Positions 1,665 through 30,665 of a DNA stretch of 32,000 nucleotides are shown here, piece after piece. Position 1 is the stretch's first letter; each line of letters opens with the position of its first letter. Under the pieces are notes generated by a model. It was not told the origin of the DNA and ran no database searches. It saw only the letters and a list, made by a program, of their open reading frames with translations. The stretch comes from Candidatus Thorarchaeota archaeon (lineage in GTDB: Archaea > Asgardarchaeota > Heimdallarchaeia > Hodarchaeales > Hodarchaeaceae): NCBI GenBank assembly GCA_048882505.1, contig JBHLRO010000022.1, forward strand, positions 1 to 32,000, given 5' to 3'. Position numbers and translations under genes: made by a program.

Positions 1665-3425
1665 ATGAACAAGATTTTTCGAATCAATATGACAGAATTG
1701 ACTGTGAATTGGGAGGATTTGCCAAAAAAGTACTCAGAATTAGGCGGAAGAGGGTTAACTTCTAACATTATATATGATGAAGTAGATCCAACGTGTGATG
1801 CTTTGGATTCTCAAAATAAGTTTGTAGTTGCTCCAGGGTTTATTACTGGGACAAATGCACCTACATCGGGACGTTTATCGGTCGGAGCGAAGTCTCCCCT
1901 AACTGGAACGATCAAAGAAGCAAATGCTGGAGGTCTGAGTCCCCAAAAACTAGGACGACTAGGAATAAGGGCATTAATAATTGAAGGAATGCCTCAATGG
2001 AATGATTGGTACAATATTTATATCACGAAAGAGAAATGTGAGATCGTAAAGGCCAACGAATATGCTGGAATGGGATTATACAAGCTAATAGAGAAGTTAT
2101 GGGAAAAATACCCAAATAAACCAGGGATTTTCGGATGTGGTTTGGCTGGTCAAAAATTAATGCTTTCTGCTGGGATTTTTGGAAATAATCCAGACAATAC
2201 AGATCCAGGTCGGTACGCTGCGAGAGGTGGACTTGGTGCCGTGCTCGGGTCGAAGAAAGTTATAGCGATAATAGTGGATGATTCTGGTACAACAAGATTG
2301 AAACCTCAAAATCAAGAGATGTTTGATATCGGCAGGAAAAAGTTGGTAAAGGGTCTAGTTCAGCATGAAGCCAAAGAAGCGCTCGCAGATTATGGTACCG
2401 AAGGATTGATGAACGTCATGAACGAATCAGGGGGATTACCCACAAGAAGCTGGCATAGAGGCCATTTCTCAAAGGCAGATAAAATTTCAGGGGAGGTAAT
2501 TCATGAGCTCGTTGCTCAAACGAAAAAGAAGTTTCCGAAGTCTCAGGCGAGAACTGGTTGGCCGTGTAATCCTGGTTGCGTTATCGCGTGTGCAAACAAA
2601 GTCCCGTACCCATTAGATCATAAAAAGGCAGGAGAAGTTCATGTCTCAACTCTTGAATACGAAACTGCAATGGCGCTGGGGTCTTTGTGTGAAATCGATT
2701 CCTTGTATCATCTAGCGGAATTAAATCGAATTTGCAATGATCTGGGAGTAGATACCATTGAAACAGGGAATACCATCGCATTGGCGATGGAGGCAGGCTT
2801 GTTAGAATTTGGCGATGGGGCTGCTGCGGTAGATTTATTAAATAAAATCGCATCTGATGAACCAATAGGCCTATTACTTGGTTTAGGGGCCTTGAGATTT
2901 GGCCAAGCATATGGAATAAGCACGAAAGTTGCTCATGCTAAGGGCCAATCCTTACCTGCATTCGATCCAAGACCACTCAAAGGAATAGGCATAACCTACG
3001 CTACTAGTCCTCAAGGAGGAGATCATACAGCTGGGTATACCATTTTTTCAGAAGTCGAAGGCGTTAATCCTGTGGATCCGATGGATACCAAGAAAGGTGA
3101 ATTATCTCGATTCTATCAATCATTCACCGCTTTTATTGACTCCATTGGATATTGTTTGTTTACAGCTTATTCATTATTAGATATTCCATCTGCAATGGAA
3201 GGAATGCTTGAAACGGCTAAAGCGATGCTCAACTTAGATTATTTAGATATTGAAGAATACGGAATGAAAATCCTCAAACTGGAACGTGAATTTAACAAGA
3301 AAGCTGGATTCACCAAAAAACATGATAGGATTCCAAAATTCTTTTATGAAATTCCTCTACCCCCGCATAATGTCGTATTTGATGTTCTAGAGGATGAAAT
3401 AAGAAAAGTGTTTAGCGACGATTAG
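1665..3425 (+). CDS. aor: Aldehyde:ferredoxin oxidoreductase family (tungsten-pterin, 4Fe-4S)
   Basis: LGGRGL, KSPLTGTIKEANAGG, ARGGLGAVLGSKK, CNPGCVIAC Fe-S motif, EYET, DLGVDTIE, GGDH, GYCLF. Substrate unknown. Confidence 0.92.
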   Translation: MNKIFRINMTELTVNWEDLPKKYSELGGRGLTSNIIYDEVDPTCDALDSQNKFVVAPGFITGTNAPTSGRLSVGAKSPLTGTIKEANAGGLSPQKLGRLGIRALIIEGMPQWNDWYNIYITKEKCEIVKANEYAGMGLYKLIEKLWEKYPNKPGIFGCGLAGQKLMLSAGIFGNNPDNTDPGRYAARGGLGAVLGSKKVIAIIVDDSGTTRLKPQNQEMFDIGRKKLVKGLVQHEAKEALADYGTEGLMNVMNESGGLPTRSWHRGHFSKADKISGEVIHELVAQTKKKFPKSQARTGWPCNPGCVIACANKVPYPLDHKKAGEVHVSTLEYETAMALGSLCEIDSLYHLAELNRICNDLGVDTIETGNTIALAMEAGLLEFGDGAAAVDLLNKIASDEPIGLLLGLGALRFGQAYGISTKVAHAKGQSLPAFDPRPLKGIGITYATSPQGGDHTAGYTIFSEVEGVNPVDPMDTKKGELSRFYQSFTAFIDSIGYCLFTAYSLLDIPSAMEGMLETAKAMLNLDYLDIEEYGMKILKLEREFNKKAGFTKKHDRIPKFFYEIPLPPHNVVFDVLEDEIRKVFSDD

Positions 3426-3998: not shown

Positions 3999-5270
3999 CT
4001 ACTGAGGGGAAAACTGGGATGATTGTAAATCGTGTATGAGAGAATCTAGCACCTGATGAAGACCGATGAACTCCTCATCGTTTTCTGGGGTATGTTCTTT
4101 CAATATTTGAACTAGGTTTAGGACTGTCCTGTCATCTCTGGTCTTGCGCAGCTGTTGGAAGAACTGACCATAGCTTTTGGCTCCTTCTTCCGCTAGGATA
4201 TCCCCAATTCGCCCATAATAGATCTCGGAAATCGTCTGATCAGCCAGTAATTCGATAAGAATTGGAAAACAGATCTCTTTGTTTGCCAAACACACCGTTT
4301 TTATCATAGTATGTTCCTCGGTTTGGGCGGAATCAAGCTGGGCGATCAGTCTTTTAAAGGATGCTTCACTTCCAATGGTTCGAAGGGCGTACAAGGCTTG
4401 CATACGTGTAAATTCGCCTTTAGTGGTGTCATTGAGGATCTGATCAAGTACTGGTATACCTTTGTCGTTTTTAATCCGCCCTATTGTTTCAACCAATGAC
4501 CCACAGATTATGTCGGAATCACACATTTGCAGGGCTTTAACAAGATCCGGAATTGCAGATTCGCCATATCGTGCAACAACTGATTGAACCAGCTTATCTG
4601 CTTGTTGGTCAAAACGGCCAATCATTCCCACCAGTGTAGCGATGGCTGAATTTTCTTTCATCTCCTCCAAAGCATACCCTGCGGTGATCCGAACTTGCGT
4701 GTCGATATCTTCGTTGTTCAAAACTTCGAGCATCTTTGCTGCAGCGGGTTTGGCATATTCTTTCATGGCGGCCAAGATAAATCCAAGGCGTTGCTGTCTT
4801 TCCGCTGTTTCCACGTCAAATACTTCCAAAATCGATGGGATCCGCTCTTGCCAGCACAATTCCCACAAAGGTTGGTTATGGCATCTATTGAAAACAGTCA
4901 GATCAAACGGAGCAAGTTGCTCTGCCATACAATTAAAAGTGAGTTGTCGACGTTGTAAAAACTGGCATTTGGTGGGGTAGTTCATATAAGGAAGCTGAGT
5001 TTGACTTGCTGCTCTTTGATAGGCGACTGCCTCAAATAGGCGATTGACTCCAGCAAAGGTATAAGGCAGCAACCATAAAATCGCAACGATAACCACTATA
5101 AGCCCCAGAATTCCCAAACTTAAGAAGAAGGGCATATATGTAAACAAAATGATCCAGGTAAGTCCACTCAAGGCTAGCGTTAGGAGACCGCGTACAAGAT
5201 CGCCAGAGAAGGTTGGAACTTTTGCGGGTACTTTAACAGGATCAGGAAGGGAGTGTTCTTCTAATGTCAT
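3999..5270 (-). CDS. Membrane-anchored HEAT/PBS-lyase repeat protein
   Basis: Two N-terminal hydrophobic helices (LLTLALSGLTWIILF; LSLGILGLIVVIVAILWLL), then HEAT-like repeats (VRITAGYALEEM..AIATLV; LVETIGRI..KGIPVL; RMQALYALRTIG). Confidence 0.8.
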   Translation of the reverse strand: MTLEEHSLPDPVKVPAKVPTFSGDLVRGLLTLALSGLTWIILFTYMPFFLSLGILGLIVVIVAILWLLPYTFAGVNRLFEAVAYQRAASQTQLPYMNYPTKCQFLQRRQLTFNCMAEQLAPFDLTVFNRCHNQPLWELCWQERIPSILEVFDVETAERQQRLGFILAAMKEYAKPAAAKMLEVLNNEDIDTQVRITAGYALEEMKENSAIATLVGMIGRFDQQADKLVQSVVARYGESAIPDLVKALQMCDSDIICGSLVETIGRIKNDKGIPVLDQILNDTTKGEFTRMQALYALRTIGSEASFKRLIAQLDSAQTEEHTMIKTVCLANKEICFPILIELLADQTISEIYYGRIGDILAEEGAKSYGQFFQQLRKTRDDRTVLNLVQILKEHTPENDEEFIGLHQVLDSLIHDLQSSQFSPQ

Positions 5271-5849: not shown

Positions 5850-5906
5850 TCTTCACCCGAAACTTATATAGTTCAAAAATGGGAAAAAGAAAGGTTATAC
5901 TCGGTC

Positions 5907-6413
5907 TCAGGTCTCTGAATAGCCTGGAACCGTCTTTAGCTGACTGATAAACCAGTCCTTATCTTCTTTTTTCTTGATTTTAGTACCTGCTTCATTTGCA
6001 AGATCGAGGTATTTTTTAACCTCATCTGACTCATTGCCAGAAACAGAGAAGGCTCTAGCCATCCCTTCGTAGGCAAATGCAATGTCGAAATCGCCGATAT
6101 TGTTTTCCTGACAAATCTTAAGGCACCTCTGAGCGTGATATTTGGCAGATTCGGCGTTTTCAGTGAGGCAATAAACACGGGAAACCTGCCAATCTCCTCG
6201 TTCGAGGTTAATGGGCCCAGTTTTCGGGTACTTTCCAGAAGCTACGACAACTCCCCAATGATAACGGGAAGCGTGAGATGAGTGAATCATCTCATCGTTT
6301 TCTTCCTGATTTCTTTCTTCTTTATCCATTAAATCCCAAGTTTGATTGAACAGTTTTGCAGCGATTTTTCGATGCCATTCCAATTCTGTTAATTTTTCAT
6401 TTCCTTCAGACAT
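5907..6413 (-). CDS. Conserved hypothetical all-helical protein
   Basis: Motifs FNQTWDLM, MIHSSHASRYHW, RGDWQVSRVY, DIAFAYEGMARA resemble a widespread uncharacterised bacterial family (recalled, not searched). Confidence 0.75.
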   Translation of the reverse strand: MSEGNEKLTELEWHRKIAAKLFNQTWDLMDKEERNQEENDEMIHSSHASRYHWGVVVASGKYPKTGPINLERGDWQVSRVYCLTENAESAKYHAQRCLKICQENNIGDFDIAFAYEGMARAFSVSGNESDEVKKYLDLANEAGTKIKKKEDKDWFISQLKTVPGYSET

Positions 6414-6481
6414 TTACAAACCTCTTTTTATTCACTTGATATTCACTGCTCATATAGAGTCTTGAACCAAGTTCTTACGTG

Positions 6482-6527
6482 GAGTACCCCTGAGTACCCT
6501 TTATATGAGTACCCCTGAGTACCCTTT
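6482..6527. repeat. Two perfect 21-bp direct repeats GAGTACCCCTGAGTACCCTTT (6482-6502, 6507-6527), each containing two GAGTACCC units
   Basis: Read directly. Octamer starts at 6482, 6492, 6507, 6517. Confidence 0.95.
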
Positions 6528-6612
6528 TTGATGTTGGAAATACGTTTGTACTTCCGATTTGTTGGCATATTATTTGAAGGAAATAGCGGATTATTGCTTG
6601 GTTGGCTTGTTT

Positions 6613-7458
6613 ATGGAATACGAAACAGAGGAATTGACGGATGATGTCAGGGCAACTATTTCGGGAGATTTCATTGAACTTACAGATGGAATCGTTCATT
6701 ACGAGCTGGCGGGCCCATTAGAGGGAAAGAATATAGTTTTGGTTCACGGATTTTCTTCTCCCATGAGCCCAGTCTGGGATAATAATTTTACTTATTTGAC
6801 AAGAAAATTCAGGGTCTTGAGATATGACTTGTTTGGACGTGGTTACTCGGATAGACCAAATATTCAATATGATGTCAATTTGTACATTCGTCAACTCGAA
6901 GAGCTATTGACTCGATTAGAGCTCACAGAAAAACGGGTAAATCTTGTAGGGTTATCCATGGGTGGCATTATCTGTGTTGTGTTCGCCGTTACACACCATG
7001 AGAGGGTTTTAAAACTCTCTTTGATAGATCCCGCGGGCTGTGAGACTACAGCTGAGTTGATTCCCTCAGAAGATATTTGGAAAATGTGGGATCATGAAGT
7101 TATGATCGAAGGTCAACGAGAAGATTTCCATAACACTGATCAGAAGGTCATAGACGATTATCTCGTGAAATATAAAGAGCAAACACGGTTTAAAGGGTTC
7201 CTAAGAGCAATAAAATCCACAATTGAACACGTTCCATTCACAAAGTTTGGTGCAGCTTACAGGAAGGTAGGAAAGTACGACATCCCTGTTCAGTTGATTT
7301 GGGGCAAAGAAGATCGGACCATACCATTTTCCTCCAGTTCCGCTGTGATCAAAGCGATCCCTCACCTCCAGTTTTATCCAATAGAAAGAGCGGGCCACAT
7401 TCCAAACTATACGCATTCACGTCAAGTCAATCAATTACTTGGGGATTTTTTGTCCTAG
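6613..7458 (+). CDS. Alpha/beta hydrolase fold protein
   Basis: VLVHGF, YDLFGRGYSD, nucleophile elbow GLSMGG, IWGKEDRTI, catalytic His in AGHIP. ATG 6613 preferred over the ORF-track start at 6559. Confidence 0.92.
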   Translation: MEYETEELTDDVRATISGDFIELTDGIVHYELAGPLEGKNIVLVHGFSSPMSPVWDNNFTYLTRKFRVLRYDLFGRGYSDRPNIQYDVNLYIRQLEELLTRLELTEKRVNLVGLSMGGIICVVFAVTHHERVLKLSLIDPAGCETTAELIPSEDIWKMWDHEVMIEGQREDFHNTDQKVIDDYLVKYKEQTRFKGFLRAIKSTIEHVPFTKFGAAYRKVGKYDIPVQLIWGKEDRTIPFSSSSAVIKAIPHLQFYPIERAGHIPNYTHSRQVNQLLGDFLS

Positions 7459-7669
7459 GAGGAGGGGACCTCAAGAGAATGGACACGTTACTTTGGCAGC
7501 ACTTTTTTCTTGACATTTCTTGACATTGCAGAACGTCTATAATCAAGAAGATTCGTTATGCGAGTGGGCATTTAATGAAGACCAAATATGAGAAAAATAT
7601 CAAAAAGAAACCTCAGCAGACGGTGTCTATGGAATTCGTTCCACAAATATATCGCCTTGGGACGTTACT

Positions 7670-8917
7670 TTGAACAATTCTCGACTTAATGACACTAAAG
7701 TTCCCTCCAAAAGGATCCCAATTCTATTTCGTCATTCGGTGCCCGAAATCCCAACAACTACGTATGGAGCCTTCGCATTATACAAATATCCAGCAAAATT
7801 TATACCTCAGGTAATTGCGTACGTTTTAAAGAATTTTGCTGAGCCTGACATGAAAATATTCGATCCTTTTGCAGGATACGGTACTGTTGGAGCCGTGTCA
7901 CGGGTATATGGATTTGATTATGAATTATGGGACCTCAATCCTTTACTTGGAACTATCCATGACACCATATTGTCAAAAGAGTCCAGTCTTAATTTTACTA
8001 GGCTATTAAATGAGCTGAAGCATTCCTCAGATGAGTTCATACCGAAATGGAAGAACCTCGATTACTGGTTTCCTGAAGAATTTCTTTCTACTCTTATAAA
8101 AACTTGGGGTTATATTCATACTCTTCCCAAAAACAGTAGTTTACAGAAAAAACTGACGATTCCTATGATTAATGTAACCCGTTACTTCTCCTGGTGCGAT
8201 GAAAAAGTTCATAAATTATACAAGTCTAAATATTCAAAAAAAAAGGTTGACGAACTTTTACAGGGGAATTGGAAATCAAGATTCTATTTAATGCTGGAGA
8301 AGGAGATTCGAGATCTTCTGGCCAAATTGGAGGAATATGAATTTTTAAAACCAAAAGCCGTGAATTACACGATAAGACATGGCGTAGATACCCTCGAAAC
8401 GGCTTTGGATGATGAAAAACATATTCTTCTCACGTCTCCACCGTATTTACAGGCCCAAGAATACATTCGATCGACGAAATTGGGTTTATATTGGTTAGGA
8501 TATGATGATGCAACGATTAGGGCCCTAAGCAAAAAAGAAATCCCCTATCGATCCGTTGATAAAATTAGGATAAAATCAAATCTATATTACGAGTGTAAGG
8601 ATAAGATAGATAATGAAAAGCTAAAGGAATTGTATGAGAGGTATTTTCACTCAATCTTGAAAGCTATTACAAATCTGGCACAGAAAATCAGTGATTATTT
8701 ATGTATTTTCATCGGTCCCGCCTCTATACGAACCGTGCCAGTTCCTATTGACGATATTATTGTAGAACATATGCAAGAACACGGGTGGATTCACGATGTG
8801 ACCTTCATCGACACAATAGTTGGCCATGTGATGTTTAAATCGCGAATAAATCCCGCCACTGGCCTTAAAAATAAGCGAATTCAATATGAACATCTTGCTA
8901 TTCTTAAGAAAGAATGA
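7670..8917 (+). CDS. DNA amino-methyltransferase, alpha motif order, probably N4-cytosine (SPPY)
   Basis: Motif X YKYPAKFIPQ and motif I FDPFAGYGT near the N-terminus; motif IV TSPPY (~8432-8446) after the variable region. TTG start is uncertain. Confidence 0.85.
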   Translation: MNNSRLNDTKVPSKRIPILFRHSVPEIPTTTYGAFALYKYPAKFIPQVIAYVLKNFAEPDMKIFDPFAGYGTVGAVSRVYGFDYELWDLNPLLGTIHDTILSKESSLNFTRLLNELKHSSDEFIPKWKNLDYWFPEEFLSTLIKTWGYIHTLPKNSSLQKKLTIPMINVTRYFSWCDEKVHKLYKSKYSKKKVDELLQGNWKSRFYLMLEKEIRDLLAKLEEYEFLKPKAVNYTIRHGVDTLETALDDEKHILLTSPPYLQAQEYIRSTKLGLYWLGYDDATIRALSKKEIPYRSVDKIRIKSNLYYECKDKIDNEKLKELYERYFHSILKAITNLAQKISDYLCIFIGPASIRTVPVPIDDIIVEHMQEHGWIHDVTFIDTIVGHVMFKSRINPATGLKNKRIQYEHLAILKKE

Positions 8918-18734: not shown

Positions 18735-19172
18735 ATGGTACGGATAGTTCCCTATTTAACCGTAAAAAATGGCAAGCAGGCTATCGAGCTGTATAAAACG
18801 ATCTTTAACGCTAGACTAGTAGATCATGAGGCATTTTCCCCTGAGACAACAGCTGACTTTAGCCTTCCTAAAGATTTTGATTATGCGAATTCTACGATGC
18901 ATGCTGAATTAGACATTGGAGGGTCAGCCATTTTCTTATCTGATAATGTTGGACCTCCTTTCGAGTCATCCACTCAACTAGTAGAAATTGTTCTGGACAT
19001 CGACACCAAAGAGGAAATTGAATTTATTTACGCAAAAGTCCAAGAAAGTGGGTGTAAGATTAAGATGGAGTTACAACAGACTTTTTGGGGGGCAATATAT
19101 GCACGATTCTCTGATCCTTTTGGAATCGGTTGGCAATTGAATTATGATTTACCTTCCGAAGAGTCTAAGTAA
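18735..19172 (+). CDS. VOC/glyoxalase superfamily protein, PhnB-like
   Basis: PYLTV...AIELYKTIF, MHAELDIGG..IFLSD, MELQQTFWGAIYARFSDPFGIGWQLN. Confidence 0.9.
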   Translation: MVRIVPYLTVKNGKQAIELYKTIFNARLVDHEAFSPETTADFSLPKDFDYANSTMHAELDIGGSAIFLSDNVGPPFESSTQLVEIVLDIDTKEEIEFIYAKVQESGCKIKMELQQTFWGAIYARFSDPFGIGWQLNYDLPSEESK

Positions 19173-19527
19173 TCCTGATACTTCTATCCAAAAGATATAT
19201 TCACCTCTTCCTTTTCAGTTTCCTTTTGTTTGGTATGTTGAATCACTAGCTAGGAAAAAATTGGCTCGCATATCACAAGGTACGATTGTACAGTAGTGAT
19301 TGGAATTAATGCTTGGATTTATGGTAATCTTTTACAGCTGTTTTCGTAAGTAAAGGTTTGAGAAGTTATCTTCCACCTTGCCATCAATAATCCTCAGTAA
19401 TCTATATCGGTGGAAATCCCGCTTTAGCCACTTATACAGAATATCTGATTACTTAGGTGAAATCAAACAGATCATTATCAGTTGATTCGTGGTTCTGGGT
19501 AGAAAGAAATCTGTAAAGTGGAAAATC

Positions 19528-20787
19528 ATGGTAAAGCGAATTAGTCTTTCGAAATTGCAGCAATCGCTGAAGCAAAATACGCAGGTCATCCTACTGGATG
19601 TCCGAACCTATCAGGAATATCGAACTGGACACATCCCTGGAGCAAAATCTGTTCCATTACACGAAATTAATCGAAATGCAAGAGATCTACCTCAAGATAG
19701 GGAAATTGTGGTTTATTGCCAAAATGGACCGTGTTCAATGTCGATGAAGGCCGCTGTCGAACTAAAAAAGCTTGGATTTCAAAATATAACTAAGCTCGAA
19801 GGTGGATATGATGAATGGAACATTAACGGGTATCCTATCGAAAGCGACCAGAAACAGCTTCCTATTTCTCGTGCTCTGTCGTATAGACCGATTGATGCCC
19901 CTAATTTAGATGCTGTAAGAAACCTCCAACAATCATCATCGAAGGAATTCATCCCCTCTGACCGCATTACAGAGTTTCTTGAAGAGCTTTCTCCAATCCA
20001 TACGTTTGAATATTCTCATATCAAACGAAAAGATTCCAAATTATCGCTCGGATATGAAATCAAAACAGTAGATGATATAAACGCCATCTATCTAATGGTT
20101 AATCCCGATCCACGTAATATTGCAACGGTTCCGGGGAATAGCTTGGTTATTTCGCATCATAAGATTAGCTGTTACGATAATTGGATATATGCGGGAATGC
20201 TTGACCAAGCACGAGACAATCGGTTTAATATTTATAACTTTCATTTGGCTTGGGATACGATGATAGACGGTATTGGGGATTCTTTTTTGCTCCATCTTGA
20301 GATTCCGAGAGAGCAGATCCGAAAAGTTGACCTGACTTACAAAGGAGTTAACATCCCAAGATTAGGATCAATTCTAGAATCCAATATCTCTCTAGAAGAA
20401 CTCATAACGCGTATGAATGCATTAAATGTAAATCCTTCGGTCATTGTGAATCCTCAATGCCAAAACGCAACGATCGGGTACATACCCGGCGGTGGATTTG
20501 TAGACAAAATGATTATTCAAATGGCCGAATATGGGGTCGATGTCCTGATTAGTAGCGATCCAAACTGGGTTGTTGAAATCATTGCACGAGAGCTTGGTAT
20601 GACCCTAGTAGTTATTGACCATTATAAGAGCGAACGATACGGATTACAGTCAATGCAACAAATCCTGACCGAAGCCTTTCATAAGATCCCTACAATCATT
20701 CTAGAAAATTTAGATTCTATTCAATGTCCTCCCGACGATTGTCCCTGTTGTGTTGAAGGGCAGCTCCAAAGCGTGCCTATAAAATAG
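19528..20787 (+). CDS. Rhodanese domain fused to a Nif3/DUF34-like dinuclear metal-binding domain, with a Cys-rich tail
   Basis: LLDVRTYQEYRTGHIPGA, VVYCQNGPC, LEGGYDEW (rhodanese). FLEELSP, LVISHH, FHLAWD, DVLISSD, IDHYKSE (Nif3). Tail CPPDDCPCC. ATG 19528 is in frame with the ORF-track start at 19489. Confidence 0.82.
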   Translation: MVKRISLSKLQQSLKQNTQVILLDVRTYQEYRTGHIPGAKSVPLHEINRNARDLPQDREIVVYCQNGPCSMSMKAAVELKKLGFQNITKLEGGYDEWNINGYPIESDQKQLPISRALSYRPIDAPNLDAVRNLQQSSSKEFIPSDRITEFLEELSPIHTFEYSHIKRKDSKLSLGYEIKTVDDINAIYLMVNPDPRNIATVPGNSLVISHHKISCYDNWIYAGMLDQARDNRFNIYNFHLAWDTMIDGIGDSFLLHLEIPREQIRKVDLTYKGVNIPRLGSILESNISLEELITRMNALNVNPSVIVNPQCQNATIGYIPGGGFVDKMIIQMAEYGVDVLISSDPNWVVEIIARELGMTLVVIDHYKSERYGLQSMQQILTEAFHKIPTIILENLDSIQCPPDDCPCCVEGQLQSVPIK

Positions 20788-20846: not shown

Positions 20847-21368
20847 TTAATCCCTATAATGTTCGTGCAAGATTTCAAGCGTTTTCTCATGGGATAACTT
20901 CAAGACATCAATTAGATCGCAAAACTTCGTAATGACTGCCGCCAATTCTTGATTACGAGTGTTTTTATCTCCTGGGATGCTCTCAGCTATCTTGAGGAGA
21001 TCTGCCTTGAGAGAAGCGTCTTGGGCCATAGTCTGTTTGGTTCTATCAATTGTTAATGCCCTGAAACTCCCTTTTACAAAGTATTTTCTTTCGGCTCTGG
21101 CATTTTCATTGTTCTCCAACGTGTATGTACAAAATTGCTGTTCTAGGAGAAGATCAAGTACCCGTGAAATGGAACTTTTCGATTTTCCTATCAATGAGGC
21201 AATTTCCTTTTGGGATAACCCTCTTTCTGGTGAAGGGGCTCTCAAGAATAAAAGACCAAACACTTGGCCCAACGTTTCAGATCTACCCTTTAATTCATAA
21301 AACCTGCTGAATGAATTTATGAAATCTTTCTCGTTATGGTTTAGTTCATTGTATTCGATCAATTCCAT
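20847..21368 (-). CDS. GbsR/MarR-family transcriptional regulator
   Basis: GRSETLGQVFGLLFL...GLSQKEIASLIGKSKSSISRVLDLL...ERKYF wHTH pattern. Confidence 0.85.
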   Translation of the reverse strand: MELIEYNELNHNEKDFINSFSRFYELKGRSETLGQVFGLLFLRAPSPERGLSQKEIASLIGKSKSSISRVLDLLLEQQFCTYTLENNENARAERKYFVKGSFRALTIDRTKQTMAQDASLKADLLKIAESIPGDKNTRNQELAAVITKFCDLIDVLKLSHEKTLEILHEHYRD

Positions 21369-21541: not shown

Positions 21542-22156
21542 ATGGATCAACCTGAGATCCTGATAGCATATGGGAGTCGATATGGATGTACGGAAGAAAT
21601 TTCAACTAAAATAGCTGACTTTCTGCAAAAAAAAGAACAGCTACCGATCAGAGTTTTGAATCTCAGAACCACACCTAAGGAGTCTTGGCCAACCCTTGAT
21701 GATTATCAGGGATTATTACTTGGGACTGGGATCCGAGTTGGAAAGTGGACAAAGGAAGCCGAATCTTTTCTTAGCAGGATCAAAAGCTCATTTTTTACCG
21801 AAAAAGGTGTCATTGGGATTTTCGTTACCTGTGGTTATGCTGCGGATGCGGTACACTATCCAATCGCCATACGAATCTTCCTAGAGAAAAAATTTAATGA
21901 CTTGGCGATTCAACCCGATATCTACGAAGCCTTTGGAGGGATTTTCGATTTTTCAGCATCCTCACGGATACCACTGATTGACAAACAAATTTTGAAGTGG
22001 GGGTCCCGCGATCTGCATTTAAAGATTGATTATGCCAAATATAATGACTATCGAAATTGGGGACGCATTTACGATTTCAGTCGTTCTTTTGCAGAATTGG
22101 CAAGGAAGAACATAGCCAAACCGAACCAAAAGCACTCGAGTGTTCCTTCCAATTAG
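21542..22156 (+). CDS. Flavodoxin-domain protein (HemG/Flavodoxin_5-like)
   Basis: ILIAYGSRYGCTEEI FMN loop, LLLGTGIRVGKW, AFGG, DYRNW..I..F. Confidence 0.87.
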   Translation: MDQPEILIAYGSRYGCTEEISTKIADFLQKKEQLPIRVLNLRTTPKESWPTLDDYQGLLLGTGIRVGKWTKEAESFLSRIKSSFFTEKGVIGIFVTCGYAADAVHYPIAIRIFLEKKFNDLAIQPDIYEAFGGIFDFSASSRIPLIDKQILKWGSRDLHLKIDYAKYNDYRNWGRIYDFSRSFAELARKNIAKPNQKHSSVPSN

Positions 22157-22460: not shown

Positions 22461-22730
22461 CTAAATCGTAACTGGAGTGATAGAAACCACTTCAGGGATT
22501 ACCGCTTTAAGACGCTCAAGAATCCCTCTCTGAAGGGTGATCGATTGTATCCCACACCCTATACATGCTCCTTCCATGTACACCTGAACGTCTCCGGTTC
22601 CCTCGTCGAAATTGACGAAGGTGATCCCACCACCGTGCATTCTTAGATATGCACTCATATCCTCTAAGACACGTTCAATTTTTTCGTCCATAGGAAGTTC
22701 TTCAAATGGTATTTCTGGTTTTGTGCTCAT
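22461..22730 (-). CDS. nfu: Nfu/NifU C-terminal domain Fe-S carrier
   Basis: YLRMHGGGI..V...VYMEGACIGC (CxxC)...TLQRGI. Confidence 0.92.
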   Translation of the reverse strand: MSTKPEIPFEELPMDEKIERVLEDMSAYLRMHGGGITFVNFDEGTGDVQVYMEGACIGCGIQSITLQRGILERLKAVIPEVVSITPVTI

Positions 22731-22767
22731 GATATTTCATTTCCTTTATTTGTAATGTCCTATTGAA

Positions 22768-23544
22768 TCAAGCAACGGCAAATTTTTCCACGTAAGGTTC
22801 ATAACCTTTGTCTTCTAGCTGTAAAGCCAGTTCTGGCCCTCCTGATTTTACGATACGCCCATCGACAAATACATGCACATAATCAGGTTTAATCCATTCC
22901 AATATACGTTGATAATGCGTAATAATAAGAACACCGACGCCTTCCTCCTCTCTAAGTTTATTTACCCCGTAGGCGACCACCTTAAGAGCGTCAATGTCTA
23001 GTCCGGAATCGGGTTCATCTAGGATCGCAATTTCAGGTTTCAGGAGTAGCATCTGAAGAATTTCATTTTTCTTCCGCTCTCCGCCGCTGAAGCCTTCATT
23101 CACATAACGATTTATGAATCCAGAACTCATATCAAGCTCTTTTAAAACGCGTCTCGTCTCCTTGATCATTTTTGGAGCTGAAGGTGCTTTTCCCGTCCTT
23201 CCCTTAATGGCCGCTAACAAGAAGCTCAATGTGTTCAAACCACTAATTGCATGGGGATGTTGAAATCCAAGATATAAGCCAAGGTTTGCGCGTTCATCTG
23301 TTGATAGCTCCAAGAGATCTTTTCCCTTATACGTAAGAGAACCCTGGGTCACCTCGTATTTTGGATGGCCCATTATCGTCAGTGCGAGCGTACTTTTGCC
23401 CGATCCGTTGGGTCCCATCATCGCATGGGTTTCGCCTCTCTGTACTTTGAGGTTCAGCCCCTTAATAATTTTTTTCCCTTCTACAGAAACGTGAAGGTCC
23501 TTAATCTCTAAAAAGATATCTTCTGACATTTTGATTTCGTCCAT
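22768..23544 (-). CDS. sufC: Fe-S cluster assembly ATPase SufC
   Basis: MGPNGSGKST, RYVNEGFSGGERKKNEILQM, ILDEPDSGLDIDAL, THYQRIL. Confidence 0.97.
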   Translation of the reverse strand: MDEIKMSEDIFLEIKDLHVSVEGKKIIKGLNLKVQRGETHAMMGPNGSGKSTLALTIMGHPKYEVTQGSLTYKGKDLLELSTDERANLGLYLGFQHPHAISGLNTLSFLLAAIKGRTGKAPSAPKMIKETRRVLKELDMSSGFINRYVNEGFSGGERKKNEILQMLLLKPEIAILDEPDSGLDIDALKVVAYGVNKLREEEGVGVLIITHYQRILEWIKPDYVHVFVDGRIVKSGGPELALQLEDKGYEPYVEKFAVA

Positions 23545-23553
23545 ATTACAATA

Positions 23554-23976
23554 TTATGTTCCATTCTTTTCTTTTAATGCAGTTAAAGCTCCATCCCTGC
23601 CAAATTCATGATACAGATTAACACCAGCTTGAACGACTTTAAGACCCAAGATAGCACACTTTGTTCGTGTTGGTGTGATTTTGATACCAAGCAGATCCAA
23701 CATGAAATTACTATCTAAGTCTCGTATTTCCTCTAAAGTCATCTCTTCCAAAGTTTCTGCTAAAATGTCCGCAGAAGCTAACGAAATGGTGCAGCCCCGG
23801 CCATCGTACGAGACTTCTTCGACGGTATGATCTTGGCCTAAGCGAATATAGAACGTAATTTTGTCACCACACGAAATGTTTTCGTCACCATGGGCAATAT
23901 CGGGATTTTCAAGAGTACCTCGGTACTGTGGATTCTTGAACCGATCTATTATGATCTGCCGATACATTTGACTCAT
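23554..23976 (-). CDS. sufU: SufU/IscU-family scaffold or sulfur-transfer protein
   Basis: NISCGDKI, GRGCTISLASA, PTRTKCA: all three conserved Cys are present. Confidence 0.92.
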   Translation of the reverse strand: MSQMYRQIIIDRFKNPQYRGTLENPDIAHGDENISCGDKITFYIRLGQDHTVEEVSYDGRGCTISLASADILAETLEEMTLEEIRDLDSNFMLDLLGIKITPTRTKCAILGLKVVQAGVNLYHEFGRDGALTALKEKNGT

Positions 23977-23995
23977 TTGACGTTTTTCTCCATCG

Positions 23996-25258
23996 TTAGA
24001 GGTCGAAGAGTTCCTTAACTTCGTTTAGTCCTTCTACTAAGCGATCAATGTCTGCACGGGAATTATATATATAGAAGCTCGCTCTTGTAGTTGCTGCCAA
24101 ATCCATACAGGCCAATAGGGGATGAGCACAATGCTGTCCAGCTCGGACACAAATCCCGTGTTCATCAAGGATCGAAGCGACATCGTGGCTATGAACATCT
24201 TTAACGTTGAACGATACCACGCCAGCTCTCCTAACAGGAGGAGGACCATATGATTCAATGAAATCAAGTTCTGCAAATCTATTCAGGCAATAATTTAAGA
24301 GGTCTTGTTCAATCTTATGAACTCGTTCCATTCCTAAGCCTTTAAGATAATCGATCGCAGCTCCGAATCCAATTCCACCTGCAATATTAGTTGTTCCAGC
24401 TTCAAATTTCCATGGTAGTTCATTCCACTTAGACTGATCTACCGTTACAGATGAAATCATATCACCCCCATAAAGAAAGGGCGGTATTGCTTCAAGGATA
24501 TCCCTTTTTCCGTATAATGCTCCAACCCCAGTAGGTCCTAGCATTTTATGAGCTGAAAAGGCAAAAAAATCGGCATCTAGATCCTTAACGTTAAGCTTTA
24601 TGTGGGGGGCGCTTTGCGCACCGTCAACTACTGACACTGCTGCGTGATCATGCGCAAGTTTTACCAATTCCTTTACGGGAGTAATCGTACCAAGAACATT
24701 GCTGACATGAGTAATTGCAAGTATCTTGGTTTTATCCGTGATCAGGCGTTCTGCTTCACTTAATTCAATTTCGCCATATTCATTAACAGGTATTACCTTG
24801 AAATTGGCTCCCGTTAATTTACAGAGCTGTTGCCAAGGTACAAAATTGCTATGATGTTCCAAGTGGCTAACAACAATCTCATCCTTCCTAGTGACATTAT
24901 TCATGCCATACGAATACATGACTAGGTTGAGGGATTCTGTTGTATTTCGGGTAAAGACTACTTCTTCAAAATCTGCGTTGATAAAGTCTGCAACCTTTTT
25001 ATGAGCACCCTCATATTCGATTGTCGAACGTTCGCTAATTTCATAAATTCCTCGGTGAATGTTGGCATTATATTCTGCATAGTAGGCATGAACAGCCTCA
25101 ATAACTTGACGGGGCCGTTGTGAACTTGCCGCGCTGTCCAGATAGACCAGGCGTTTGCCATTCCTGCGTGCATTCTTTAGAAGAGGAAAATCATCCAGGA
25201 TACCATTATGGAATTCTGAAGAATCCGATTCGTTGGTGGAATATTGAAGATCACTCAA
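23996..25258 (-). CDS. sufS: Group II cysteine desulfurase SufS
   Basis: YLDSAASSQRP, EHHSNFVPW, DGAQS, FSAHKMLGPTG (PLP Lys), FEAGT, VRAGQHCA (catalytic Cys). TTG start overlaps the Rieske gene by 8 nt. Confidence 0.96.
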   Translation of the reverse strand: MSDLQYSTNESDSSEFHNGILDDFPLLKNARRNGKRLVYLDSAASSQRPRQVIEAVHAYYAEYNANIHRGIYEISERSTIEYEGAHKKVADFINADFEEVVFTRNTTESLNLVMYSYGMNNVTRKDEIVVSHLEHHSNFVPWQQLCKLTGANFKVIPVNEYGEIELSEAERLITDKTKILAITHVSNVLGTITPVKELVKLAHDHAAVSVVDGAQSAPHIKLNVKDLDADFFAFSAHKMLGPTGVGALYGKRDILEAIPPFLYGGDMISSVTVDQSKWNELPWKFEAGTTNIAGGIGFGAAIDYLKGLGMERVHKIEQDLLNYCLNRFAELDFIESYGPPPVRRAGVVSFNVKDVHSHDVASILDEHGICVRAGQHCAHPLLACMDLAATTRASFYIYNSRADIDRLVEGLNEVKELFDL

Positions 25259-25601
25259 CTTTTAGAAACACCTCGTTGTTACGAACGATCACTGGATAAA
25301 CAGGCAACGGGTTTGTTGCAGGAGGCTGGATTACCTCGCCGGTCGTCATGTCAAAGGTCGCTAAATGGTTCTTGCATGTCACATATTCATCTTGAAATAT
25401 GCCTTGTTTGGTCAAATCCACTGCCTTATGGGTACAGAATGCAGATGTTGCATAAATCTGATTTTCGATCTTTCGAACCATGATCTTACTCTTAGCGTCA
25501 TCCACTAAGACCGAAATCACCTTACCATCTGAGAGGTCATCCACGGTACACACACGCACTTCCATTGGCTCAACCAATTGTTTTTGGCTTTCGAGTGTCA
25601 T
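25251..25601 (-). CDS. Rieske [2Fe-2S] ferredoxin
   Basis: CTH...CKNH Rieske ligand pattern. TAATG overlap with the sufD stop. Confidence 0.92.
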   Translation of the reverse strand: MTLESQKQLVEPMEVRVCTVDDLSDGKVISVLVDDAKSKIMVRKIENQIYATSAFCTHKAVDLTKQGIFQDEYVTCKNHLATFDMTTGEVIQPPATNPLPVYPVIVRNNEVFLKVE

Positions 25602-27013
25602 TATTCATCCATACTATAAAAAGCCCCATAGGTCTCTAGATCTTTCGATTGAGGTAACCCTTTGAATTGCCAGCCGTAAGTTCTTTCCTGGTGCCACTTT
25701 TCAAGGGCTACTTGCCGTATAAGGTGAGATATACGTTTTTCGCCAAACTTGGAAAAGATCGGTTCCAAATAGCTCAATAAAACCAATCTGCGTGCCCTAG
25801 ATTCCGGAATTCCGCGTGATAAAAGGTAAAAAATCTGTTCTTCATCCACCTGACTCACAGTTGCCGCATGAGCAGCCCGTACCTCGTTATTATCGATAGC
25901 TAAGGCCGGAACAGCATTAAATTGCCCCTTACCTTGTAACAATCCCTCCGCTTTAAGCCAAGAGTCGGCATTTTTTCCTTTAGCTTCGATATGAATCAAA
26001 CCTCGCAAGGTACTCTCTGCTCGATCCCGCATAATACAGCGAGCGTTGGTGGCCCCGATTGTGTTTTCGGCTTGGTGAGTAAGCTGGGATTTGATATCGA
26101 ATCGTTGGCGTTCGGTGCCGTGCATCGTGTATAAATCGTGTGCATCACACCCAGAAGCACTTAGAAACAACTCATTGGACATTCGCGTCAATGCACTTCC
26201 TTGAAGGTGACAAAGCGATTCAAACTTCCCATTCGGTTTAAAATCTACTCGCCTACTCGCAAAAAGGCTCCCTGATAATGCCAGATTTTGAATTTGCCCC
26301 ATCTTTACTTGCGTATTTGCTCCGACATGAACCTCTTCTACGAGACTCAGCAGATGCGGGGTTGTTACTCTCTGGTCGGAATAAAGTTCTTCGATTAAAC
26401 TGATTGAACTGTTAGATTCAGTGTAAATCAGAAGTTCGGAAAACATCCCAGCAGATGGCGCATCTTGAATCACCAGTCGCCTGATTGGGTTTTCCAAGAT
26501 AACATTTTTTGGGACATAAAGTAGAGTTCTATTCGTAGCCAGTGCGCCATTTAGAGCTGCAAGTTTATCGTCATGTTTTCCGTACAACCGTTTGTTTAAC
26601 AGCGGTGAAACTGTTTCAAGGCTATTTTTTATGGCTTCTTTGAGTTCGGTAAGAATTATTCCACTATCAAGAGCAGTTTTGGATAAATAAACTGTTTTAA
26701 CCCCAGAACTTGCCTCTATAATCAAAGCAGAGGTGTCTCGTTTCAAAATGGCTAATCTATGTTTAATTTCAGCGGGAATAGGCGTTGGTTTCAAGGATGG
26801 AATGGAAGGCCTCAATTGCGTGAAATCGAGCCCGGTAAATTTTGTGTATTTGTAGAATAGAGTATCTCTATCTACTGGCAAGCGTTGATAGGCCTTGAAT
26901 GCGTTCTTTCGGTACTGAAGGAAGGATTTTGGTTCGTCTCGACTCTCTGCGATAGAGAGGGGGGTCGTTCCATCTACTTCAGCCAATTGAATCTCTTGCA
27001 CTTGGCTGGACAT
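25601..27013 (-). CDS. sufD: Fe-S cluster assembly protein SufD
   Basis: SufBD beta-helix features, NAVPALAIDNNEVRAAHAATV, IFYLLSRGI. Follows sufB. Confidence 0.9.
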   Translation of the reverse strand: MSSQVQEIQLAEVDGTTPLSIAESRDEPKSFLQYRKNAFKAYQRLPVDRDTLFYKYTKFTGLDFTQLRPSIPSLKPTPIPAEIKHRLAILKRDTSALIIEASSGVKTVYLSKTALDSGIILTELKEAIKNSLETVSPLLNKRLYGKHDDKLAALNGALATNRTLLYVPKNVILENPIRRLVIQDAPSAGMFSELLIYTESNSSISLIEELYSDQRVTTPHLLSLVEEVHVGANTQVKMGQIQNLALSGSLFASRRVDFKPNGKFESLCHLQGSALTRMSNELFLSASGCDAHDLYTMHGTERQRFDIKSQLTHQAENTIGATNARCIMRDRAESTLRGLIHIEAKGKNADSWLKAEGLLQGKGQFNAVPALAIDNNEVRAAHAATVSQVDEEQIFYLLSRGIPESRARRLVLLSYLEPIFSKFGEKRISHLIRQVALEKWHQERTYGWQFKGLPQSKDLETYGAFYSMDE

Positions 27014-27026
27014 TGTTTCCCTGTCC

Positions 27027-28421
27027 TCACCCTACGCTACCTTCCATTTGAAGTTGAACCAGTCTGTTGAGTTCTACTGCGTAGTCCATTGGCAATTCTT
27101 TGACGAATGGCTCAAAGAATCCCATGACGATCATACTAAGGGCATCATTTTCATTTATGCCTCGCGACATAAGGTAGAAAAGCTGATCCTCGCCGATCTT
27201 ACCGACTGTTGCTTCGTGGCTAATGGTGGCATCCTCTCGATTGGTTTCGATATAGGGGAATGTATCAGAGGTACTCTCTTCATCTAGGAGTAGGGCGTCA
27301 CAAACGACGTTGGATGATATTTTTTTCGCCGTAGGGGATACTCTTACAAGACCCCGATAGGTAGTCTTTCCTGATCCTCGGGAAATGGACTTATTGATGA
27401 TTCGAGATTTAGTATCGGGTGCAAGATGGATCATCTTGGCCCCAGCATCTTGATGTTGACCTGTTCCTGCATAAGCCACAGAAATAACCTCGCCGCGGGC
27501 ACCCTGGCCCATCAAGTAAATAGAGGGATATTTCATTGTAAGCTTGCTACCGAGATTTCCGTCAATCCATTCTATGTGAGCGTTCTTGTACGCAAACCCA
27601 CGTTTCGTTACTAGATTATAGACGTTATTCGACCAATTCTGAATGGTGGTATATCGGATCCTGGCGTCTTCCATTGCAATCAATTCAACTACAGCAGAGT
27701 GTAACGAATCAGTACTGTAAACAGGGGCAGTACATCCCTCCACATAATGCACATCTGCGCCTTTTTCCGCAATGATCAGAGTCCGTTCAAATTGGCCAAC
27801 GTTTTTGGCATTAATGCGGAAATAAGCCTGGAGAGGAACATCTACCTTAGTATTGCGTGGCACTAGGATAAAAGAACCTCCGCTCCATACTGCACTGTTT
27901 AATGATGCAAATTTATTGTCGTCCTTGGGAACTACGGTTCCGAAGTATTCTAGGAACACGTCTTCATATTCCTTGAGCCCCGTGTCTGTGTCGAGGAACA
28001 CTACTCCGAGCTTTTCAAGGTCTTCACGTAGTTTATGATAGACAACTTCTGAATCATACTGTGCTCCAAGTCCCGCCAGAAATTTACGTTCGGCCTCAGG
28101 AACACCTAATTTATCGAATGTTGCCTTAATTGCATCGGGGACGTCATCCCAGGTTTTTTCGGCATGATCTGTATAGCGTACATAGTAGGTCAGATCATTA
28201 AAATCGATTTGTCCCAATTCGTCACCCCACCGCGGGAGGGGGGTGTCGGTGAAGTGTTTCAAGGATTCTAGCCGAAAATCGAGCATCCAACTCGGTTCAT
28301 TCTTAATGCGAGAGATTTCACGGACAACTTTTTCCGTTAATCCTCTCTCAGTTCGAAATATATCTTCCTCTGGATCAGCCCATCCAGCTGTGTACTCCTT
28401 TTCAGGAATGTCTTTATACAT
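27027..28421 (-). CDS. sufB: Fe-S cluster assembly protein SufB
   Basis: [69 protein letters not shown]. Confidence 0.97.
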
Positions 28422-28599: not shown

Positions 28600-28763
28600 A
28601 TCCCTATAAAAATTCTTTGGTTCGGTTCTATTATGGCCGCAAATGTATGATTCATGGGATTAGGGAAAAACACCGATTGGGATCGGTTATGATATGACCA
28701 CAATCACTCGAATTACGGGAAGAAATCACTTGGTAAAAAACCATTCGATTGGAGAGGCAATTC

Positions 28764-30665
28764 ATGAGTACTGAAGGTAAAGTCACAGTTGAAACTTTTA
28801 AATTCCAAGCAGAGATTCAAAAGGTACTAGACATACTAATAAATCGATTATACAAGAATAGAGAAATTTTTCTACGTGAATTAATCTCTAACGCAGCTGA
28901 CGCCTTACATAAGTTCCGTATCAAACGCTTCGAGGCATCAGAAGAGATTCTGGATTCTGATGAAGAATTGGCGATCCACATACTTTTTGATGAGGATGAA
29001 AAGACTATTAGTGTAATTGATAACGGCCTGGGGATGGATTATGAAGAAATTGTCGAAAATTTAGGTACCATTGCACAGAGTGGAACCCTAGAGTTCTTCA
29101 ATCAACTAGAAAAGTCCGCGGACGCTATAAATCTGATTGGTCAATTTGGAGTGGGCTTTTACAGTTCCTTTATTGTTTCCGATGAAGTAGTGGTTAGATC
29201 TCGGTCCTATAAGGAAGACGCCGAAGGGGTTGAATGGAAATCTCAAGGAACGGGAGAATTCACTGTTTCCCATTATGAAAAATCTGATCGTGGAACTGAG
29301 GTCATTCTTCACCTCAAAGAAGACGCCAACGAATTTCTGAATAAATTTAAATTGGAAGGAATCATCAAGAAATACAGCGACTTCGTCGGTTTCCCAATTC
29401 GGATCGGAGACGATGAAAAAATCATTAATCGGCAGACTCCCATTTGGCACCAGTCCGAAGATTCAATAGAAGAAACAGATTACAACGAATTTTATCGCCA
29501 AATTTCTATGGACTTCACCGAACCCTTACATCGTATTCATTTTAGTGTGGATGCCCCTATCCAGTTTCGAGCCCTTTTATTTCTTCCCAGCCAGCGAAAT
29601 CGGATGATGATGACTAATCTGTATTCGGATTATGGTTTGCGCTTGTATAGCAAGAAAATCCTGGTTCAAGAAAAAGCCAAGGATCTACTACCGGAATATT
29701 TACGATTTGTGGTTGGAGTAGTTGATTCAGAGGATCTTCCGCTTAATGTCTCTAGGGAGGTAATCCAGGTAGATCGTTCTATAAGGAGGATTTCGAAGGT
29801 TTTAACTTCCAAAGTACTTGATGAACTGGAAAAGATTGCAGATGATGATGAAGATAAGTATTTGGAATGGTGGCAGCAGTTTGGGGTTTTCATAAAAGAA
29901 GGGCTGACCTCTGACCAGAAAAGAAAGCAAAAACTGCTTAAACATTTGAGAGTCTATACATCAAAATCTACCGATAAACAAATTACATTGGATCAATATC
30001 TAAAAAACACGCCCAAGGAACAGGAGGAGGTTTTTTATCTCCTTGGCGAAAACTTAGATACCCTTAAGAGGAGTCCACATCTGGAACACTATAATAAACT
30101 TGATCAAGAAGTTATCCTTTTTGATGAACCGGTTGATACTTTCGTTATGACTCATATAACAGAGTATAAGGACAAAAAGTTCAAACTAGTAGATCAAGCG
30201 GAACCTGAACCCGAGTCTGAAGAAAAGAAGGAGGAGGAAGGCGAAACCAAGGAGAAGGAACCCGAAAAAGATAAACTATTATCAAAAATGCTCGAGGTAC
30301 TGGGAGACAGAGTTGTTGACGTTCGTTACACAGATCTTTTAACTGAAAGCCCGTGTCGGCTTGTAAGTCCAAGTGGAACCGGGACATTCACGCGAATGCT
30401 CAAGTATATGGACGAGAATTATATTCCCCAGAAGAAGATCCTTGAAATAAATCGTAATCATCCCTTAATAAAAGGGCTCGATCCTAAATCCCCTATGTTT
30501 TCGCTAAAGACGTTTATGTTGCTGGAAGGTCAAGAATTGTTGGAGGGAATCTTACAGAATCCCACGGACATGGTCTCGCGAATTCATGAATTAATGATGA
30601 CGAATGTCAGCTCACAGTTACAGGACAAGGGGAAGGCAGGAAAAAAGAAGTCAAAAAAGAAGTAA
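28764..30665 (+). CDS. htpG: Molecular chaperone HtpG (Hsp90)
   Basis: EIFLRELISNAADA, DNGLGM, LIGQFGVGFYSSF, RGTEVILHL, GVVDSEDLPLNVSRE, KILEINRNHPLI. ATG 28764 preceded by GGAGAGG. Confidence 0.97.
   Translation: MSTEGKVTVETFKFQAEIQKVLDILINRLYKNREIFLRELISNAADALHKFRIKRFEASEEILDSDEELAIHILFDEDEKTISVIDNGLGMDYEEIVENLGTIAQSGTLEFFNQLEKSADAINLIGQFGVGFYSSFIVSDEVVVRSRSYKEDAEGVEWKSQGTGEFTVSHYEKSDRGTEVILHLKEDANEFLNKFKLEGIIKKYSDFVGFPIRIGDDEKIINRQTPIWHQSEDSIEETDYNEFYRQISMDFTEPLHRIHFSVDAPIQFRALLFLPSQRNRMMMTNLYSDYGLRLYSKKILVQEKAKDLLPEYLRFVVGVVDSEDLPLNVSREVIQVDRSIRRISKVLTSKVLDELEKIADDDEDKYLEWWQQFGVFIKEGLTSDQKRKQKLLKHLRVYTSKSTDKQITLDQYLKNTPKEQEEVFYLLGENLDTLKRSPHLEHYNKLDQEVILFDEPVDTFVMTHITEYKDKKFKLVDQAEPEPESEEKKEEEGETKEKEPEKDKLLSKMLEVLGDRVVDVRYTDLLTESPCRLVSPSGTGTFTRMLKYMDENYIPQKKILEINRNHPLIKGLDPKSPMFSLKTFMLLEGQELLEGILQNPTDMVSRIHELMMTNVSSQLQDKGKAGKKKSKKK

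Follow-up and report, generated by a model that had tools for sequence, protein, structure and literature searches.

What does a protein do that carries, on one chain, a sulfurtransferase-type rhodanese domain, a dinuclear metal-binding domain of the Nif3 type and a C-terminal cluster of cysteines? The question is raised by a gene on contig JBHLRO010000022.1 of a Candidatus Thorarchaeota archaeon (assembly GCA_048882505.1; Hodarchaeaceae in GTDB), of which we analyzed positions 1 to 32,000, here called the window. Few protein families that lack an established function are as widespread as DUF34/NIF3, which has members from bacteria to humans. The current proposal for this family, that of a metal chaperone or insertase, rests mainly on comparative genomics and on HcgD (MJ0927) of Methanocaldococcus jannaschii (PDB 3WSD-3WSI, 4IWG), a Nif3-family protein proposed to be the iron chaperone for the FeGP cofactor of [Fe]-hydrogenase. 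An earlier note, made from the DNA alone, had taken the fusion for a single-chain protein delivering sulfur and metal for cofactor assembly or tRNA thiolation, and had pointed to a neighboring SUF operon. We tentatively favor, at a probability of roughly 45%, an accessory thiolate-relay metal chaperone, or a metallochaperone-like protein, in which the rhodanese domain would add sulfane sulfur or thiol redox chemistry.

The gene (19528..20787, plus strand, as are all of its parts given below) is an uninterrupted open reading frame (ORF) encoding 419 residues followed by a stop codon, in the order rhodanese, linker, Nif3 and Cys tail. The frame is open from 19489, and the start was assigned to the ATG at 19528 (MVKRISL), matching the N-termini of homologues. 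The rhodanese domain (residues 1-108; 19528..19851) is recognized by Pfam PF00581 over residues 9-98 (E 3.7e-21, 75.9 bits, cut-off 22.2), and the Nif3/DUF34 domain (residues 143-396; 19954..20715) by PF01784 over residues 147-392 (E 2.6e-19, 70.3 bits, gathering score 23.4), placing the protein in both families. An AlphaFold2 (AF2) model calculated from 69 sequences has a mean predicted local distance difference test score (pLDDT) of 84, with values of about 90 in the rhodanese domain and mostly above 85 in the Nif3 domain. The linker and N-terminal extension between them (residues 109-142, about 35 residues; 19852..19953) begins with a stretch, residues 109-118, that is predicted to be disordered (pLDDT below 50), and its SYR..P segment recurs in stand-alone Nif3 forms, at their N-terminus. 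The rhodanese active-site loop is Y-C64-Q-N-G-P-C69-S70 (19717..19737). The metal ligands of the Nif3 domain are H210-H211 in the motif SHHK (20155..20160), H239 and D243 in NFHLAWD (20242..20256), and H365 and E369 in IDHYKSE (20620..20634), and the Cys cluster C400-PPDD-C405-P-C407-C408 is encoded at 20725..20751. The earlier note had located the loop, the ligands and the four-Cys tail correctly, and the domains, ligands and tail are conserved.

Both sequence and predicted fold relate the Nif3 domain to HcgD. The six ligands, forming the pattern HH, H-x3-D and H-x3-E, align to those of HcgD (SHHK to its THH) and show little or no variation across 22 fusions and 69 family members. When a family profile was compared with the PDB, HcgD/MJ0927 was the top match (E 8e-10), with its ligands aligned. 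Foldseek assigned the modeled domain to the Nif3 fold with a probability of 1.0 and TM-scores (TMt) of 0.65-0.77 to HcgD, YbgI, XynX and TTHA1606; HcgD (3WSE/3WSD, TMt 0.77) ranked first, followed by XynX, YqfO, YbgI, SA1388 and TTHA1606. The domain is of the YbgI/HcgD type, without a PII-like insert. It scored 63.6 bits with TIGR00486, the YbgI_SA1388 equivalog of NCBIfam (cut-off 130.55), and 23.7 bits with NF008064, type 2 GTP cyclohydrolase I (cut-off 414). Both assignments were rejected and, the scores being far below both cut-offs, we regard the domain as a divergent Nif3. The annotation "type 2 GTP cyclohydrolase I" is itself questioned in PMC8469502. Orthology with HcgD was also rejected, because Hmd (PF03201) gave no match in the source genome (94.6% completeness), in a search whose control matched M. 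jannaschii. No hcg-like neighbors were seen at the loci viewed, which comprised the window and the loci of orthologues, paralogues and relatives. Based on its sequence, then, the protein is a member of a Cys-tailed, HcgD-like Nif3/DUF34 subfamily.

Within this subfamily the tail is paired with C311 (motif NPQC, of the form NPxC; 20458..20460), a subfamily-specific Cys. In addition to the fusions, the subfamily contains stand-alone proteins of about 300 residues with a Cys tail, and proteins of about 400 residues in which a helical extension of about 105 residues takes the place of the tail. One of the latter, P0062, gives a weak TerB match (E 3.5e-4, below the cut-off). C311 is present in 61 and absent from 1 of the cluster representatives with a Cys tail, and is present in 3 and absent from 19 of those with the helical extension; since the representatives are related, these counts describe a pattern and are not a statistical test. 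Tail residues 401-419 have pLDDT values of 35-38 and are predicted to be disordered. The ratio of nonsynonymous to synonymous substitution (dN/dS, Nei-Gojobori), calculated against the orthologue in the 92%-identical genome G070, is 0.08 for the tail, 0.10 for the rhodanese domain, 0.04 for the linker, 0.07 for the Nif3 domain and 0.079 for the whole gene. The tail, although disordered, is under purifying selection.

In a quick maximum-likelihood tree (IQ-TREE), which was rooted on two shorter members lacking the Cys features and has too low a resolution for counting events of fusion and loss, the stand-alone Cys-tailed forms are basal and the fusions make up a derived clade, with the helical-extension forms nested beside the Heimdall fusions. 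An ENA contig encodes a 412-residue protein, P0048, in which an S-adenosylmethionine-dependent methyltransferase domain (Methyltransf_11, with a weak TehB match) replaces the rhodanese domain before Nif3; this tree places it within the Thor fusions whose rhodanese lacks the cysteines. Longer multidomain forms of the Cys-tailed Nif3 branch were not found, which is weak evidence.

The match to the hidden Markov model and the position of C64, which opens a six-residue loop, predict that the rhodanese domain is a sulfurtransferase. Foldseek superposed it on the single-domain rhodaneses 3tp9, 3nhv and 3gk5, and on the rhodanese domains of persulfide-dioxygenase fusions, with root-mean-square deviations of 1.0-1.5 Å. 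A Cdc25/Acr2-type phosphatase or arsenate reductase was ruled out, as the loop, C-Q-N-G-P-C-S, has the length typical of rhodaneses and contains no Arg, so that the seven-residue C-X5-R motif is absent. Across 32 fusion clusters, the pair of residues at the two ends of the loop is C..C in 19, S..D in 10 and G..R in 3, so that a cluster has either both rhodanese cysteines or neither. The C..C loops belong to the Heimdall/Hodarchaeales clades and to Methanofastidiosia, and the S..D loops are Thor-like. In the 13 clusters in which both cysteines are absent the tail and the metal ligands are retained, and adjacent loop residues (Q/N66, S-M-S) are conserved despite the Cys replacement. Because both loop cysteines are replaced in these 13 of the 32 clusters, persulfide chemistry is not a universal role of the fused domain. 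The earlier interpretation is partly supported: HcgD, which it cited, is the closest solved relative by profile (E 8e-10) and by fold (TM 0.77).

Fusions of this kind are rare. Among 5.8 billion clusters searched, some 35 (90% identity) have both domains in one ORF; they carry the names Hodarchaeales, Heimdallarchaeota, Thorarchaeota and, in one case, Methanofastidiosia, and their entries come from NCBI, JGI, ENA and Logan. Only one of 1.84 billion representatives at 50% identity, P0018, spanned the whole protein, and a search of the ESM Atlas returned generic archaeal Nif3 clusters only. The full-length fusion is encoded in 4 of 400 Asgard species genomes, namely the source genome, G070 (92% identity), G076 (73%) and G340 (50%), and a scan of species-representative genomes added one Methanofastidiosia metagenome-assembled genome (MAG). 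Within the class, the entire Cys-tailed subfamily occurs in 4 of 83 genomes, all of one genus; outside the class, the phylum scan detected it only in family f31, the matching loci being Thorarchaeota MAGs. So patchy a distribution is an accessory pattern, and counts against the core role in cofactor assembly or tRNA thiolation that had been suggested.

The architecture had been thought undescribed, which is correct only in part. Two rhodanese-DUF34 fusions, A0A523S1I0 (Thorarchaeota OWC) and A0A1Q9NQ61 (Heimdallarchaeota LC_3, "GlpE"), are listed by Reed et al. 2021 (PMC8469502) in Data Table S11, with the ratings "Conditional" or "Valid, conditional". Both share the architecture of PF00581 plus PF01784 and come from the same archaeal groups. 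The main text of that paper does not take them up, the word "rhodanese" occurring there 0 times, and their cysteines, tail, paralogues and gene context are not analyzed in it. The architecture has therefore been catalogued before but never analyzed. To judge from the searched literature, four observations are new: tail and C311 are coupled, the two rhodanese cysteines are lost as a pair, the paralogues have expanded, and metal and sulfur-carrier genes lie in the neighborhoods.

The source genome encodes three Cys-tailed Nif3 copies, the fusion and two stand-alone forms, together with a distant canonical-like Nif3. Each of the three lies beside different genes related to metals. One stand-alone paralogue (G000:C3:144115-144993; L039 9574-10533) has a YHS-domain gene on one side and a CopZ-like HMA gene on the other. 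The second stand-alone copy (G000:C2:114087-114986; L038 9558-10514) sits in a string of CMD (AhpD-like), Nif3 and ArsR/SmtB genes, with a TusA gene adjoining. Nine Thor loci (L040, L041, L051, L052, L055, L067, L068, L070 and L078) have the same arrangement, in which a LonB-like protease gene is followed by a stand-alone Cys-tailed Nif3 gene and then by an FTR1 iron permease gene in convergent orientation. The Lon and Nif3 ORFs of L040 overlap by 4 bp, and L055 has HMA and YHS genes upstream in addition to the FTR1 arrangement. At L042 (10856-11962; G327:C26) a divergent gene for an ACR3 arsenite exporter (TIGR00832, 421 bits, above the cut-off) stands beside a stand-alone Cys-tailed Nif3. 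The recurrent neighbors of the subfamily are thus ArsR/SmtB, CopZ-like HMA, YHS, FTR1, ACR3, TusA, separate rhodanese and VOC metalloprotein genes.

The separate rhodanese gene is found on the metagenome contig SDBT01000304.1 (L073), where the Nif3 gene (5887-7089) encodes the helical extension of about 105 residues instead of the tail and lacks C311. Directly downstream on the same strand lies a stand-alone rhodanese gene (7311-7721) with a predicted active-type loop, CPGGGL, and two genes upstream lies a TusA gene (4420-4656). These neighbors support the association of rhodanese and Nif3 that the fusion implies. Together with the TusA gene near the C2 paralogue, they give independent backing to a functional link between this Nif3 subfamily and sulfur carriers.

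The neighbor of the fusion itself is a VOC/glyoxalase-fold metalloprotein gene (18735..19172, plus strand; PF00903; YjdN/PhnB-like, the NCBIfam YjdN score of 41.7 bits being below the cut-off), whose product is a possible client or partner. A VOC gene adjoins the fusion in three lineages: in the window, in G076 (L036), as the immediate upstream gene of the same strand, and at four Thor loci (L037, L060, L071 and L076), where it lies one or two genes downstream, again on the same strand. VOC genes number only about 11 in the whole source genome. The loci of G076 and G340 have no neighbor in common with the window except this type of gene. At L037 (6124-7137) and L060 (4513-5499), the Thor rhodanese-Nif3 gene and the VOC gene are separated by a gene whose product joins an MtrA-like, corrinoid-binding domain to a 2x[4Fe-4S] ferredoxin.

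We favor the chaperone reading because the dinuclear-metal ligands are invariant and HcgD is the top relative by sequence and by fold; because C311 co-varies with the tail (61:1 against 3:19) and the tail is disordered yet selected; because the three paralogues each lie beside different metal genes, with FTR1, ACR3 and VOC genes among the neighbors of the subfamily; and because rhodanese and TusA genes flank a non-fused relative and the distribution is patchy and accessory. In the mechanism that we envisage, one ion of the dinuclear site would be labile, as proposed for HcgD. The thiolates of the tail and C311 could then take up a thiophilic metal ion, or pass it on, between the dinuclear site and client proteins or exporters. 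The candidate ion is Fe, or possibly Cu, Ni, Zn or one of the As type. In the Heimdall/Hodarchaeales clade, the C64/C69 pair might load sulfane sulfur onto the thiolates of the tail and C311, or keep them reduced, so that metal and sulfur chemistry would be coupled. In the clades where both cysteines are replaced, the rhodanese domain would probably be an anion-binding or docking module only. The role of the protein is probably in the homeostasis of metals or metalloids, or in maturing accessory metalloproteins, for instance the VOC enzyme encoded next to it, and probably lies outside core Fe-S biogenesis.

Several points weigh against this assignment. What Nif3 proteins do in general has yet to be settled (PMC8469502), and the members considered here are known as gene sequences. 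In their titles and abstracts, the papers from 2021 onward that a literature search listed for NIF3, YbgI, YqfO, HcgD and XynX report no new biochemical function for the family. The tail is unmodeled in AF2, making the closeness of C311, the tail and the dinuclear site hypothetical. The neighborhoods are heterogeneous, the fusion loci L047, L057, L058, L059 and L066 having no metal or sulfur gene, and in many cases the supporting loci belong to related genomes and do not count as independent. The neighboring VOC genes belong to different VOC subfamilies. Finally, the context of ArsR, TusA and rhodanese genes would also fit the sensing of persulfides rather than of metals.

The proximity of the SUF operon suggested a role in Fe-S assembly. 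The cluster (22461-28421, minus strand) contains sufB, sufD, a Rieske gene, sufS, an IscU/SufU-like gene, sufC and an Nfu-like gene; the Rieske gene (PF00355) is inserted between sufD and sufS. Its nearest member, nfu (22461-22730, minus strand), lies 1.67 kb downstream of the fusion gene, in agreement with the distance of 1.7 kb noted before. Two genes intervene. One encodes a convergent winged-helix (MarR-like) regulator (20847..21368, minus strand), which has weak MarR_2/HTH matches and is kept only in G070, leaving its association with the fusion uncertain; the other is flavodoxin-like (21542-22156, plus strand) and lies between the regulator and nfu. The suf synteny is likewise kept only in G070, which is 92% identical, and is absent at G076 (73%), G340 (50%) and the other fusion loci, so that the conserved linkage looked for in a co-occurrence check was not observed. 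Membership in the SUF system as an accessory component was rejected by this synteny comparison, and the fusion gene is not part of the neighboring SUF operon.

In a more specific form, the model of the earlier note is a self-contained protein that delivers or assembles iron and sulfur. Here the dinuclear site would give the iron and the rhodanese the sulfane sulfur, and C311 and the tail would be the scaffold on which Fe-S or other metal-sulfur cofactors are built or repaired, possibly with SufS. All three chemical ingredients are on one chain, the closest relative, HcgD, is a proposed iron carrier, and the genes nearby include the FTR1 permease of the Thor relatives, the rhodanese and TusA of the non-fused relatives and, in the source genome, the SUF operon 1.7 kb away. 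DUF34 has also been linked to Fe-S proteins by Reed et al. 2021 (PMC8469502). On the other hand, the SUF synteny does not extend beyond the 92%-identical genome, and the genes at 20847-21368 (minus strand) and 21542-22156 (plus strand) separate the fusion from suf. The rhodanese Cys pair is gone in 13 of 32 fusion clusters that retain the tail and ligands, and the subfamily is missing from most of the Asgard genomes that have SUF and Fe-S proteins. We consider this explanation unlikely.

An enzyme of sulfide or persulfide (reactive sulfur species) stress is harder still to accept. By analogy with the fusions of persulfide dioxygenase (PDO) and rhodanese, the dinuclear Nif3 site would be catalytic, acting on a sulfur compound presented by the rhodanese. 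The PDO/beta-lactamase-rhodanese fusions 3tp9 and 5ve3 are among the best structural matches of the rhodanese domain, the C2 paralogue lies among ArsR-family, TusA and AhpD-like genes with a weak match to BigR, the L073 rhodanese gene adjoins a Nif3 gene, and the accessory distribution in sediment MAGs would fit. However, we know of no Nif3 protein with such an activity. Cys-less rhodanese variants are common, the ArsR match to BigR is far under the cut-off (28 against 155 bits), and the copper, iron and arsenic genes of the other neighborhoods would be left unexplained.

A more ambitious proposal, and one that we regard as improbable to a similar degree, is a minimal builder or repair module for metal-sulfur clusters that is independent of SUF and ISC. 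Two irons held by Nif3, sulfane sulfur from C64/C69 and the scaffold of C311 and the tail would yield a [2Fe-2S]-type or other metal-sulfide unit, which would be handed to clients. If true, this would be the first defined chemistry for the ubiquitous DUF34/NIF3 family. An assembly or annotation artefact, or a decaying non-functional chimera, is excluded for practical purposes: some database entries are truncated halves (P0015, P0016, P0044, P0119 and P0123) and the rating given to the architecture by Reed et al. 2021 (PMC8469502) was only "Conditional", but the full-length ORF is continuous in about 35 clusters from many independent assemblies and sources, the linker is conserved and dN/dS is 0.04-0.10 in every segment (about 0.08 overall), which also disposes of the earlier concern that a sequencing error had joined two separate genes.

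Other features of the window bear less directly on the fusion. The 355-bp intergenic region upstream of it (19173-19527) matches its G070 counterpart at 87% identity, and blocks at about 19320-19400 are almost the same in the two; it has no Rfam match and no convincing small ORF, and may be a regulatory region. A conserved downstream partner ORF in L057, L058 and L059 was considered and rejected, the ORFs there being probably spurious because they are low-complexity and unrelated. The window also encodes a tungsten-type aldehyde:ferredoxin oxidoreductase (AFOR_N + AFOR_C; 1665-3425, plus strand) and a BtpA-family protein (711-1514, plus strand). A link to tungsten-pterin genes had been proposed for checking, and these two genes, 16 kb from the fusion, show no sign of linkage to it. 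A full-length Hsp90/HtpG homologue (28749-30665, plus strand; PF00183, E 6e-101) is present in this Asgard archaeon.

The chaperone reading bears on the long-standing question of what Nif3 proteins do, for which this branch offers a tractable handle. In the Asgard branch the dinuclear site is supplemented in three ways: a thiolate tail goes together with C311, a sulfur carrier (TusA or a rhodanese) is either tethered to the chain or encoded next to it, and paralogues stand beside genes of copper, iron and arsenic homeostasis. With these three natural handles, the chaperone hypothesis is directly testable with simple mutants. The analysis also corrects, for this window, an attractive but unsupported inference by placing the fusion gene outside the SUF system.

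The protein can be compared with known systems from either of its halves. GlpE, PspE, YgaP and the rhodanese-like domains of MoeB/MoeZ have the same fold and a six-residue loop starting with the catalytic Cys, whereas the fused domain ends this loop with a second Cys (C-x4-C) and is joined to a metal-binding domain. The persulfide dioxygenase-rhodanese fusions (PRF; 5VE3, 3TP9) likewise combine a rhodanese with a metalloprotein, and the rhodanese domains are 30-32% identical and superpose within 1.1-1.4 Å. In PRF, however, the partner is a mononuclear-iron protein of the metallo-beta-lactamase fold, not Nif3, and the rhodanese is C-terminal, so that the order of domains is reversed. From the Nif3 side, the YbgI/SA1388/YqfO-type proteins (TIGR00486; 1NMO, 2NYD, 2GX8) and XynX (9G9U) have the same fold and the motifs HH, H..D, H..E and D-x3-S/T-G/S-D; the fusion differs in having HHK in place of HHP and in its C311, Cys tail and N-terminal rhodanese. 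HcgD, at about 20% identity, has no rhodanese domain, Cys tail or C311 equivalent, but it shares with the fusion the same six dinuclear-metal ligands and the lack of a PII-like insert.

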